From Escherichia coli (GTDB lineage: Bacteria > Pseudomonadota > Gammaproteobacteria > Enterobacterales > Enterobacteriaceae), in NCBI RefSeq assembly GCF_003334355.1, contig NZ_QOWP01000077.1: a DNA stretch of 2,235 bases; one strand, 5' to 3'. A model generated the notes under the pieces. It ran no database searches and was not told the DNA's origin. It saw only the letters and a program-made list of their open reading frames with translations. Position 1 is the first letter of the stretch. Every line of letters starts with the position of its first letter. Made by a program: the position numbers and the translations under genes. Shown piece after piece: positions 1-2,235 of this stretch.

Positions 1-159
1 AAACCAGACGGGTTAACGGCAGCAAAGAACCTTGCAGAGGCGTTCGAGCATTATAACGAATGGCATCCGCATAGTGCACTGGGTTATCGCTCGCCACGGG
101 AATATCTACGGCAGCGGGCCAGTAATGGGTTAAGTGATAACAGGTGTCTGGAAATATAG
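1..159 (+). CDS. insD: IS2 transposase OrfB (InsD), C-terminal 52 codons; 5'-partial at window edge
   Basis: Open frame 1 from position 1 to TAG at 157..159; the translation carries the [18 protein letters not shown] motif. Confidence 0.8.
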
Positions 160-170
160 GGGGAAATCCA
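130..170 (+). repeat. IS2 right terminal inverted repeat (inner boundary approximate)
   Basis: Terminal sequence ends in GGGGGAAATCCA at 170, as recalled for the IS2 right end; it overlaps the OrfB stop codon. Confidence 0.65.
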
Positions 171-244
171 ATGAACACCTCCCTCTCGAGATTTTTAAAC
201 AAAGCACATTGAAAAATAAATCTCTCTGGGATTGAATTATTCAT
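171..244 (-). pseudogene. 5' stub (24 codons, MNNSIPERFIFQCALFKNLEREVF) of a small gene, probably ymgC, interrupted by IS2; the frame reads on into IS2 with no stop before the window edge
   Basis: Minus-strand ATG at 244..242 preceded by a good Shine-Dalgarno (GAGG, plus 250..253, 5-nt spacer). The position, downstream of ariR on the same strand, is where ymgC lies in the K-12 ycgZ-ymgABC operon. I cannot confirm the YmgC N-terminus from memory. Confidence 0.4.
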
Positions 245-356: not shown

Positions 357-623
357 TTACATATCATCAGCTGTGTATCGCAACACGATTTCCAGTGTTT
401 TTCTAATCACATCAGCTTTGAGAATATCACTTGTTGTTTCCAGGGAGTGTATCAGACTTAAGATAATATTTTTATTATTAACATTATCGCCTGAAAGCAT
501 TAAATTGGTGACAGCCTGCCCTAACACTGCTGACTCTTCTTCTAACAAATTACCCGAACTGCGAAAGTAACTTGCTAACGCTTTATCAGTTATTGCATTA
601 TGAATTGTAGTATCTTCAAGCAT
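357..623 (-). CDS. ariR: AriR/YmgB, small regulator of acid resistance and biofilm (88 aa)
   Basis: Complete 88-aa ORF with Shine-Dalgarno GAGAGG (plus 629..634) 5 nt upstream of the ATG. Length, sequence and operon position match the recalled E. coli AriR. Shares the L-G-x-x-V-T...N...K...L-E pattern with the ycgZ product. Confidence 0.9.
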
Positions 624-651: not shown

Positions 652-924
652 TTAATGTATTCTGTTTATTTTCTTACCATTGAACATACTTTTATTGTCA
701 GCTGTCGCTGTTCTTCGGTTTGGCCCTCCTGAATCACTATTGCTAAAATCACGAATTATGCTGTCAATTAAATCGCGTCGGAAAGCATCTTCCTCAGCCG
801 ATTTCATTACGAGTAATTGCTTAATAAGAGTCTGCAATGAAAAATTTATCTTCATGCGCAGTATCTGGAGCACCGCCTGGCCAGTAATTTCATATTTTAT
901 ACGTTCATTATCAGATGTCTTCAT
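652..924 (-). CDS. ymgA: YmgA, small connector protein of the ycgZ-ymgAB operon (90 aa)
   Basis: Complete 90-aa ORF lying 42 bp downstream of ycgZ and 28 bp upstream of ariR on the same strand. Contains a GQAV motif shared with AriR. Own Shine-Dalgarno is weak (GAAG); a 4-codon overlapping upstream ORF is described in findings. Confidence 0.88.
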   Translation of the reverse strand: MKTSDNERIKYEITGQAVLQILRMKINFSLQTLIKQLLVMKSAEEDAFRRDLIDSIIRDFSNSDSGGPNRRTATADNKSMFNGKKINRIH

Positions 925-966: not shown

Positions 967-1203
967 TTATTCAAAAAGCAACCCAATTAGTGCATTATAA
1001 TGTTTCTGTTCCTCTTCCCCTGTCGCTTGTTCCAGTCGGCAAAGAAGTTTGGCACAAAGCGACTTTCGACTCAGATTACGTCCATCTTTCAAAATCTCAG
1101 TCACAATTTCCCCGAGAGTTTCCTGCTGAGTAGGCAAGTTAGCTTTTGCAAAGTAACGAGTGATTGCTCCCGCAGAATCTGAAGTCACTGAATTTTGATG
1201 CAT
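967..1203 (-). CDS. ycgZ: YcgZ, first gene of the ycgZ-ymgA-ariR operon (78 aa)
   Basis: Complete 78-aa ORF with Shine-Dalgarno AGAGG (plus 1211..1215) 7 nt upstream of the ATG. Clear similarity to AriR (YF...LGEIVTEILKDGRNLSRKSLCAKLLCRLE against [29 protein letters not shown]). Divergent from bluF as in K-12. Confidence 0.9.
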   Translation of the reverse strand: MHQNSVTSDSAGAITRYFAKANLPTQQETLGEIVTEILKDGRNLSRKSLCAKLLCRLEQATGEEEQKHYNALIGLLFE

Positions 1204-1516: not shown

Positions 1517-2116
1517 ATGCTTACCACCCTTATTTATCGTAGCCATATACGTGACGACGAACCTGTCAAAAAAATCGAAGAAATGGTTTCGATAGCAAAT
1601 CGCAGGAACATGCAGTCTGACGTAACAGGGATCTTACTGTTTAATGGTTCTCATTTTTTCCAGCTTCTGGAAGGTCCGGAAGAACAGGTTAAAATGATAT
1701 ATCGGGCTATATGCCAGGATCCACGGCACTATAATATTGTTGAGCTGCTGTGCGATTACGCGCCTGCTCGCCGTTTTGGCAAAGCGGGAATGGAATTATT
1801 TGATTTGCGCCTGCACGAGCGAGATGACGTTTTACAGGCCGTATTCGACAAAGGCACATCAAAATTTCAGCTAACTTATGATGACAGAGCGCTACAATTT
1901 TTTCGTACTTTTGTCCTTGCAACCGAACAATCAACCTATTTCGAGATCCCTGCCGAAGACTCCTGGCTTTTTATCGCTGACGGATCTGATAAAGAACTTG
2001 ATTCCTGTGCCCTTTCACCAACTATAAACGACCACTTTGCCTTTCATCCTATTGTCGATCCCTTATCGCGGCGGATAATCGCTTTTGAAGCCATTGTGCA
2101 AAAAAATGAAGATTGA
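1517..2116 (+). CDS. bluF: BluF/YcgF blue-light antirepressor, N-terminal 199 aa only (intact BLUF domain, EAL domain cut off just after its signature); truncated by IS3 insertion, likely pseudogene
   Basis: MLTTLIYRSHIRDDEP...GILLFNGSHFFQLLEGPEEQV is a BLUF photoreceptor signature. FHPIVDPLSRRIIAFEAIVQ corresponds to the start of an EAL domain, but the ORF stops 5 codons later at the TGA (2114..2116) that is the first triplet of an IS3-type terminal repeat. Recalled full-length BluF is about 403 aa. Start placed at 1517 rather than the track's 1439. Confidence 0.85.
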   Translation: MLTTLIYRSHIRDDEPVKKIEEMVSIANRRNMQSDVTGILLFNGSHFFQLLEGPEEQVKMIYRAICQDPRHYNIVELLCDYAPARRFGKAGMELFDLRLHERDDVLQAVFDKGTSKFQLTYDDRALQFFRTFVLATEQSTYFEIPAEDSWLFIADGSDKELDSCALSPTINDHFAFHPIVDPLSRRIIAFEAIVQKNED

Positions 2117-2152
2117 TCCTACCCACGTAATATGGACACAGGCCTAAGCGAG
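2114..2152. repeat. IS3-type terminal inverted repeat (about 39 bp from recall; inner boundary approximate)
   Basis: Starts with the TGATCC typical of IS3-family ends (5'-TG...), abutting bluF codon 199. Confidence 0.65.
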
Positions 2153-2235
2153 GTTCTGGTTTTCAAATTGTTCCGGACTGAGGCCGCCACACCAACTGTG
2201 CCGCCGCCACCGATTGTAATCACATTCGATATAAT
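2144..2235 (-). CDS. IS3-family transposase OrfB, C-terminal fragment; 5'-partial at window edge
   Basis: Minus-strand frame open from the window edge to TAG (plus 2146..2144); the translation ends ...YNRWRRHSWCGGLSPEQFENQNLA. Confidence 0.7.
   Translation of the reverse strand, partial: YIECDYNRWRRHSWCGGLSPEQFENQNLA

Follow-up and report, generated by a model that had tools for sequence, protein, structure and literature searches.

Junctions of an IS2-like element and IS3 with the bluF locus of Escherichia coli: ordinary insertions that probably form no hybrid promoter

Two insertion sequence ends bound the studied bluF locus. They most probably form ordinary insertion junctions that make no hybrid promoter, and RNA leaving the elements would originate at most within IS3 or from transposase read-through. 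The stretch of DNA analysed here (further referred to as the window, 2235 bp) is an Escherichia/Shigella-type bluF locus lying between two different insertion sequences, an IS2-like element and IS3. The interval 2100–2160, flagged in a preliminary description as a possible source of outward transcription, is the bluF'/IS3 junction, the last base of bluF codon 199 being 2113 and the right inverted repeat of IS3 starting at 2114. The genes and element ends of the window are as follows.

1..170, plus strand: right end of the IS2-like element with the 3' end of orfAB (stop codon 157–159) and the tip at 170, assigned by sequence identity and the PSS-12 annotation
130–170: 41-bp right inverted repeat of IS2 (ending ...AAATCCA)
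171..175, no strand: ATGAA, the 5-bp target-site duplication of IS2 in ymgC (right-hand copy), assigned from the PSS-12 arrangement (...GTCATGAA, then IS2, then ATGAACACC)
171..244, minus strand: ymgC', the 5' fragment of ymgC cut by IS2, start codon 244–242, assigned by mapping the PSS-12 and KD602 annotations onto the window
357..623, minus strand: ariR (ymgB), intact
652..924, minus strand: ymgA, intact
967..1203, minus strand: ycgZ, intact
1517..2116, plus strand: bluF' codons 1–199 (BLUF domain and linker) with a TGA stop codon (2114–2116) from the IS3 tip
2114..2235, minus strand: right end of IS3 comprising the 3' end of orfB (stop codon 2146–2144) and the inverted repeat, 122/122 identical to the annotated 1258-bp IS3
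2114..2152, minus strand: right inverted repeat of IS3, 39 bp, starting with TGATC, its tip adjoining bluF base 2113

The identities and orientations of the elements bear out the geometry proposed earlier. Both right ends face inward, toward ymgC'-ariR-ymgA-ycgZ-bluF'. Transcription leaving IS3 would run along the minus strand, antisense to bluF, and transcription leaving IS2 along the plus strand, antisense to ymgC'/ariR. Between the divergent genes bluF and ycgZ, the intergenic region (1204–1516) is intact, with at most a few SNPs between the loci compared. Both insertions are ordinary insertions of IS3-family elements and show nothing beyond the known kinds.

Positions 1–170 of the window are 96.5% identical to annotated IS2 and match the copy from E. 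coli PSS-12 at 169 of 170 positions. In PSS-12 the same IS2-like element resides in ymgC as a simple insertion with ATGAA on either side; this copy is 1331 bp long and 95.7% identical to standard IS2. Over its 1943-bp core, the PSS-12 locus shows a single base difference from the window, and bluF of PSS-12 is intact. The ymgC-borne element has all the hallmarks of IS2, namely the 41-bp right repeat, the adjacent orfAB and the 5-bp target duplication. Its insertion cuts YmgC after about 25 codons. Of the junctions of the window, only that of IS2 with ymgC was found in a set of 5,426 complete E. coli genomes, in strain PSS-12.

The ymgC-borne element is a variant of IS2, and other genomes carry a nearby IS2 in the same orientation, for instance, KD602, where it lies between pdeG and ymgC. 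Several top matches have IS2 at other spots of the ymgC–ymgA stretch. These sequence comparisons suggest that the ymgC–ymgA region is IS2-prone. At position 165 the tip of the element reads GGGGGAAATCCA, as opposed to GGGGCAAATCCA in PSS-12 and canonical IS2, which is a private C-to-G substitution six bases from the tip. [quoted passage not shown]

At the other end, the plus-strand gene bluF begins at 1517 and is cut after codon 199 (base 2113), whereas the uninterrupted gene, 403 codons long when intact, would run on as AGCCCATC. The first three bases of the IS3 repeat, TGA, are the stop codon of truncated BluF. The element has the features of IS3, an imperfect 39-bp inverted repeat starting with TGATC and the adjacent 3' end of orfB; in a direct comparison, its right and left repeats match at 28 of 39 positions. 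The bluF/IS3 junction is absent from the 5,426 complete E. coli genomes, which were searched for its right-end, left-end and IS911-like-end forms. With the IS3 right end, it occurs in draft assemblies (e.g. locus L011), and the exact 199-aa BluF' product is found in other assemblies too. The locus is best described by a canonical IS3 that has inserted, right end inward, after bluF codon 199, truncating BluF behind the BLUF domain and supplying the stop codon, with the IS2-like element as its counterpart at the opposite end, a simple insertion into ymgC with a 5-bp duplication.

Right ends of IS2 and other IS3-family elements carry an outward −35 box from which junction or hybrid promoters can arise (PMC3299598, PMC9330008). 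Hybrid promoters of IS2 are well documented for ampC, acrEF and neoR (PMC9330008). These precedents favor the proposal that a −35 box in each right repeat pairs with a −10 box in bluF or ymgC DNA, with antisense starts just outside the tips. The following two positions are relevant at the IS2/ymgC junction.

149..154, plus strand: TGGAAA, the outward −35 box of the IS2 minicircle junction promoter (Pjunc), located by rebuilding the circle junction and from PMC3299598
172..177, plus strand: the slot for a would-be hybrid −10 box, reading TGAACA, with no A at position 2 and no T at position 6

Every pairing of −35 and −10 boxes with spacers of 15–19 nt was scored on both strands. The scoring matrix was a simple log-odds one, based on consensus-base frequencies of E. 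coli σ70 promoters, and the scores are an approximation only; the matrix takes no account of UP elements, discriminator effects or other sigma factors. It was calibrated on lacUV5 (14.1 bits) and lacP1 (10.0 bits). As a null test, the same element ends were joined to random local flanks and the best hybrid was rescored. The IS2 circle junction rebuilt with a 1-bp spacer served as a positive control, and for the IS3 circle junction all 64 possible 3-bp spacers were scored. The positive control yielded TGGAAA-17-TAGACT with 8.1 bits, consistent with the 17-nt spacer that the IS2 junction promoter absolutely requires (PMC3299598).

The IS2 end of the window has the same TGGAAA, intact and as far from the right tip as it is in Pjunc and the known hybrid promoters. 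The difference lies in the second box: TAGACT of the circle, or the host −10 box in activations of the ampC type, is replaced here by TGAACA. The latter is no −10 box (−2.5 bits alone), and the total for TGGAAA-17-TGAACA is 1.1 bits. Given this hexamer at the obligatory 17-nt spacing, no promoter would be assembled at the IS2/ymgC junction. The best-scoring hybrid over the IS2 tip, GTGTCT-17-TCCAAT, is a near-miss with 5.65 bits, but the A that is essential at position 2 is missing from TCCAAT, and random local flanks equal or beat it in 26% of cases.

At the IS3/bluF junction, the repeat contains no −35-like hexamer able to pair with the flank, the best one within approximately 30 nt of the tip scoring at most 1.0 bit. 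The circle junction of IS3 also produced no good pair (median 2.5 bits), and this poor score indicates that the IS3 repeat has no obvious −35 box. The best hybrids over the tip are ATTACG-17-CATTTT (3.3 bits) and TAGGAT-17-CACAAT (3.0 bits), the latter being the near-miss at this end. Random local flanks equal or beat the real hybrid in 77% of cases.

Matrix scoring detected no −10 box at a workable spacing in either flank, and extended −10 boxes (TGn), sought in both flanks, are absent from the junctions. A consensus scan was negative for outward promoter-like sites at both junctions; across the whole window it found 6 sites, with 6.6 ± 2.4 expected. The preliminary description had also failed to identify a convincing −10 box at the correct spacing in either flank, and in this our results agree with it. 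Its premise, that right ends of IS3-family elements carry an outward −35 box forming junction promoters, holds in principle and for IS2 with its TGGAAA at 149–154, but is not supported by the scoring for IS3, in which no terminal −35 box was detected. The hybrid promoters themselves find no support at either junction, since even the best hybrids do not exceed chance, and we regard their existence here as highly improbable. Neither junction, then, would make a hybrid σ70 promoter.

Two hexamers at the IS3 end deserve mention in their own right. CACAAT (2098–2093) lies downstream of the IS3 tip; with the critical bases A2 and T6 in place, it needs a single mutation to become a good −10 box, and it might allow a start in the bluF flank that is very weak or does not depend on a −35 box. 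Among the −35-like hexamers of the IS3 right end, TTGAAA (2166–2161, minus strand) scores highest (6.0 bits), with no −10 partner 15–19 nt downstream (GCCTGT at 17 nt). Both resemble the proto-promoters described in ends of IS3-family elements by Fuqua and Wagner (Nat Commun 2025; PMC12095673), whose boxes are one mutation away from activity. Those were measured on plasmid reporters, whereas here the resemblance is at the level of sequence. TTGAAA may be a proto-promoter of this kind, and it may relate to the highest rate of promoter emergence, which was observed for the IS3 right end: in that study, promoters emerged by mutation least often in IS2-R (0.02) and most often in IS3-R (0.23) (PMC12095673).

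Candidate starting points for outward RNA lie deeper within IS3. The features of its right end that bear on outward transcription are listed below.

2165..2195, minus strand: P3R, the published complete outward promoter of IS3, with −35 box TTGGTG (2195–2190) and −10 box CAATTT (2170–2165), start expected near 2158
2213..2235, minus strand: a second outward pair, −10 box TACAAT (2218–2213) and −35 box TTTAAT with a 15-nt spacer, 6.9 bits, corresponding to hotspots 14 and 15 of PMC12095673
2139..2149, minus strand: putative RNA polymerase pause element, position approximate, mapped on the assumption that the published 150-bp fragment ends at the tip

The TTGGTG and CAATTT boxes are those of Charlier 1982 as quoted by Fuqua and Wagner (PMC12095673), and the name P3R is used by Kanai et al. 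(NAR 2022; PMC8860574), who also cite Charlier 1982. Both hexamers are found in the window on the minus strand, reading outward, and the expected start (about 2158) is inside the flagged interval 2100–2160. P3R is a poor match to the consensus, scoring −0.5 bits at its 19-nt spacer and 6.5 bits if read as TTGGTG-17-AACAAT. For the second pair, only the last two bases of TTTAAT (2235–2234) lie inside the window, the rest being read from the annotated IS3 copy. As IS3 is documented to have a complete internal outward promoter, the earlier idea of a terminal −35 box overlooked P3R. The antisense starts anticipated at 2080–2113 (minus strand) should be relocated accordingly: given P3R within IS3 and no hybrid pair at the junction, any starts are expected inside the element, at about 2158 or about 2206.

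The window shares with the P3R of Charlier 1982 the element itself, the two boxes and the right end (identical over 122 nt), and in both cases the promoter reads through the right repeat into host DNA. The settings differ, as P3R faces here the 3' side of a truncated gene, in antisense, as opposed to a promoterless gene. Moreover, the 2025 reporter study found the wild-type IS3 end to be essentially inactive and self-attenuated (PMC12095673). In that study the terminal 150 bp of IS2-R and IS3-R were chosen because they lacked detectable promoter activity, a promoter being detectable only within 150 bp of the reporter. Removal of the last 50 bp of IS3-R increased outward expression about 1.9-fold (1212 vs 638 units), and the authors ascribe this effect to a pause site for RNA polymerase, possibly acting with Rho (PMC12095673). 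The key positions within the 150-bp IS3-R fragment, 123 and 125 according to the preprint of PMC12095673, would map to window positions 2141 and 2139, and the pause pattern G(−10)...Y(−1)G(+1) fits g2149...t2140 g2139. Our analysis therefore points, if anything, to the flagged interval 2100–2160 as damping outward transcription rather than sourcing it.

The whole window is predicted to be free of intrinsic terminators, and a search for stable hairpins or other RNA structure across the tips showed the outward RNAs to be no more stably folded than shuffled sequences (z = +0.8 and +0.65). Consequently, transcripts reaching a tip would run on into the flank. The strength of P3R is contested, its activity being 'strong' in Kanai et al. 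(PMC8860574) and undetectable in Fuqua and Wagner (PMC12095673). This disagreement makes the real chromosomal output of P3R uncertain. Both element ends may be silent, leaving gene disruption as the sole effect of the insertions. Such silence would agree with the inactivity of the wild-type 150-bp IS2-R and IS3-R fragments in the sort-seq reporter and with the pause element in the IS3 tip (PMC12095673), as well as with the native IS2 promoter being weak and repressed by OrfA (PMC3299598). It is at odds with the reporter values themselves, since 638 units for IS3-R against 1212 without the tip imply some initiation (PMC12095673), and with the IS3-driven argE expression recovered in Charlier 1982, as related in PMC12095673 and PMC8860574. 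Besides, no terminator halts the transposase mRNA ahead of either tip. We consider complete silence possible, though the less probable case.

The preferred reading remains that of ordinary junctions with at most weak, low-level antisense read-out, which our analysis predicts for this particular locus. RNA leaving IS3 would begin at the weak P3R (2195–2165), possibly at the TTTAAT/TACAAT pair, or would be transposase mRNA reading through; the pause element within the last 50 bp would then dampen this transcription before it proceeds antisense into bluF'. For the IS2-like element, transposase read-through would be the only plausible outward transcription.

The path of IS3-derived RNA is antisense to bluF' for about 600 nt and then co-directional with ycgZ-ymgA-ariR. 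RNA from P3R and transposase read-through might cross bluF' and enter ycgZ-ymgA-ariR in sense, providing functional, BluR-independent expression of these genes. In addition to the shared direction, such expression would be compatible with the lack of an intrinsic terminator on the minus strand from 2114 to 1203 and with a known case in which the outward promoter of IS3 activated a gene downstream, argE (Charlier 1982, as related in PMC12095673 and PMC8860574). However, about 900 nt of untranslated antisense RNA are a good substrate for Rho, the IS3 tip attenuates transcription, and the wild-type end has no detectable reporter activity (PMC12095673). Furthermore, in other assemblies the same bluF site holds an oppositely oriented IS3, which counts against orientation-dependent selection. 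Because of weak initiation, attenuation at the tip and the exposure of about 900 nt to Rho, productive read-through to ycgZ-ymgA-ariR is very unlikely.

The insertion point in bluF is of separate interest. The bond 2113/2114 (after ...AAAAAAATGAAGAT) carries different ends of IS3-family elements in different assemblies, with the identical 199-aa truncated BluF each time. It is occupied by the IS3 right end in the window and in locus L011, and by the IS3 left end in loci L003, L010 and L012. The third occupant (loci L004/L013) is an end reading TGAAGTGGTCAAC... / TGAAGTGGTCAACAAAAACTGGCCACCG, which may be the IS911 left end. We considered whether all exact 199-aa matches represent one IS3 insertion and rejected this, as the sequence ends show a mixture.

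About half of the exact 199-aa matches are contigs that stop 0–2 nt after codon 199; these are selected by the look-up itself and provide no evidence of insertion. Nine contigs from unrelated assemblies end with ...GAAGAT, ...GATA or ...GATAG without any insertion sequence, six of the nine at +2. As an exact 199-codon partial product needs a contig end at this point, these nine stops are largely expected. Two long contigs break at the codon 199 point, one of 54 kb (NCBI assembly) and one of 34 kb (gut metagenome).

In Shigella sonnei, a widespread YcgF allele of 198 aa (840 contigs) ends with ...QKNEAHQP and has no upstream IVDP; the end corresponds to window positions of approximately 2108–2117. 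Judging from the protein, a deletion of 4 nt (GATA/ATAG) at the place in bluF where IS3 inserted would encode exactly the ending ...KNEAHQP. Such a deletion could be the footprint of an excision or a lesion that arose there independently. The window itself is not the S. sonnei allele of bluF, given that the 198-aa YcgF lacks IVDP and ends with KNEAHQP.

BluF relieves the repression of ycgZ-ymgA-ariR by BluR. With BluF cut ahead of the EAL-like domain, this relief is presumably lost. We tentatively suggest that the bond 2113/2114 might be a preferred target of IS3-family elements, at which the EAL-like, anti-repressor C-terminal half of BluF is lost recurrently among lineages, although we think this doubtful. 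The events that would count toward it are IS3 in both orientations, the IS911-like end and the putative 4-nt deletion of S. sonnei. If true, the BluF/BluR switch for blue light and cold, which governs ycgZ-ymgA-ariR, would have been inactivated convergently.

Outward and hybrid promoters borne by insertion sequences are a textbook way of rewiring neighboring genes, and there is no sign of a new one at this locus, where the observations are already known biology. If RNA-seq shows an antisense or junction-spanning signal here, its source should be sought in the internal promoter of IS3 or in transposase read-through and not in a junction promoter. What the two insertions mainly do is disrupt genes, cutting BluF behind the BLUF domain and cutting YmgC.
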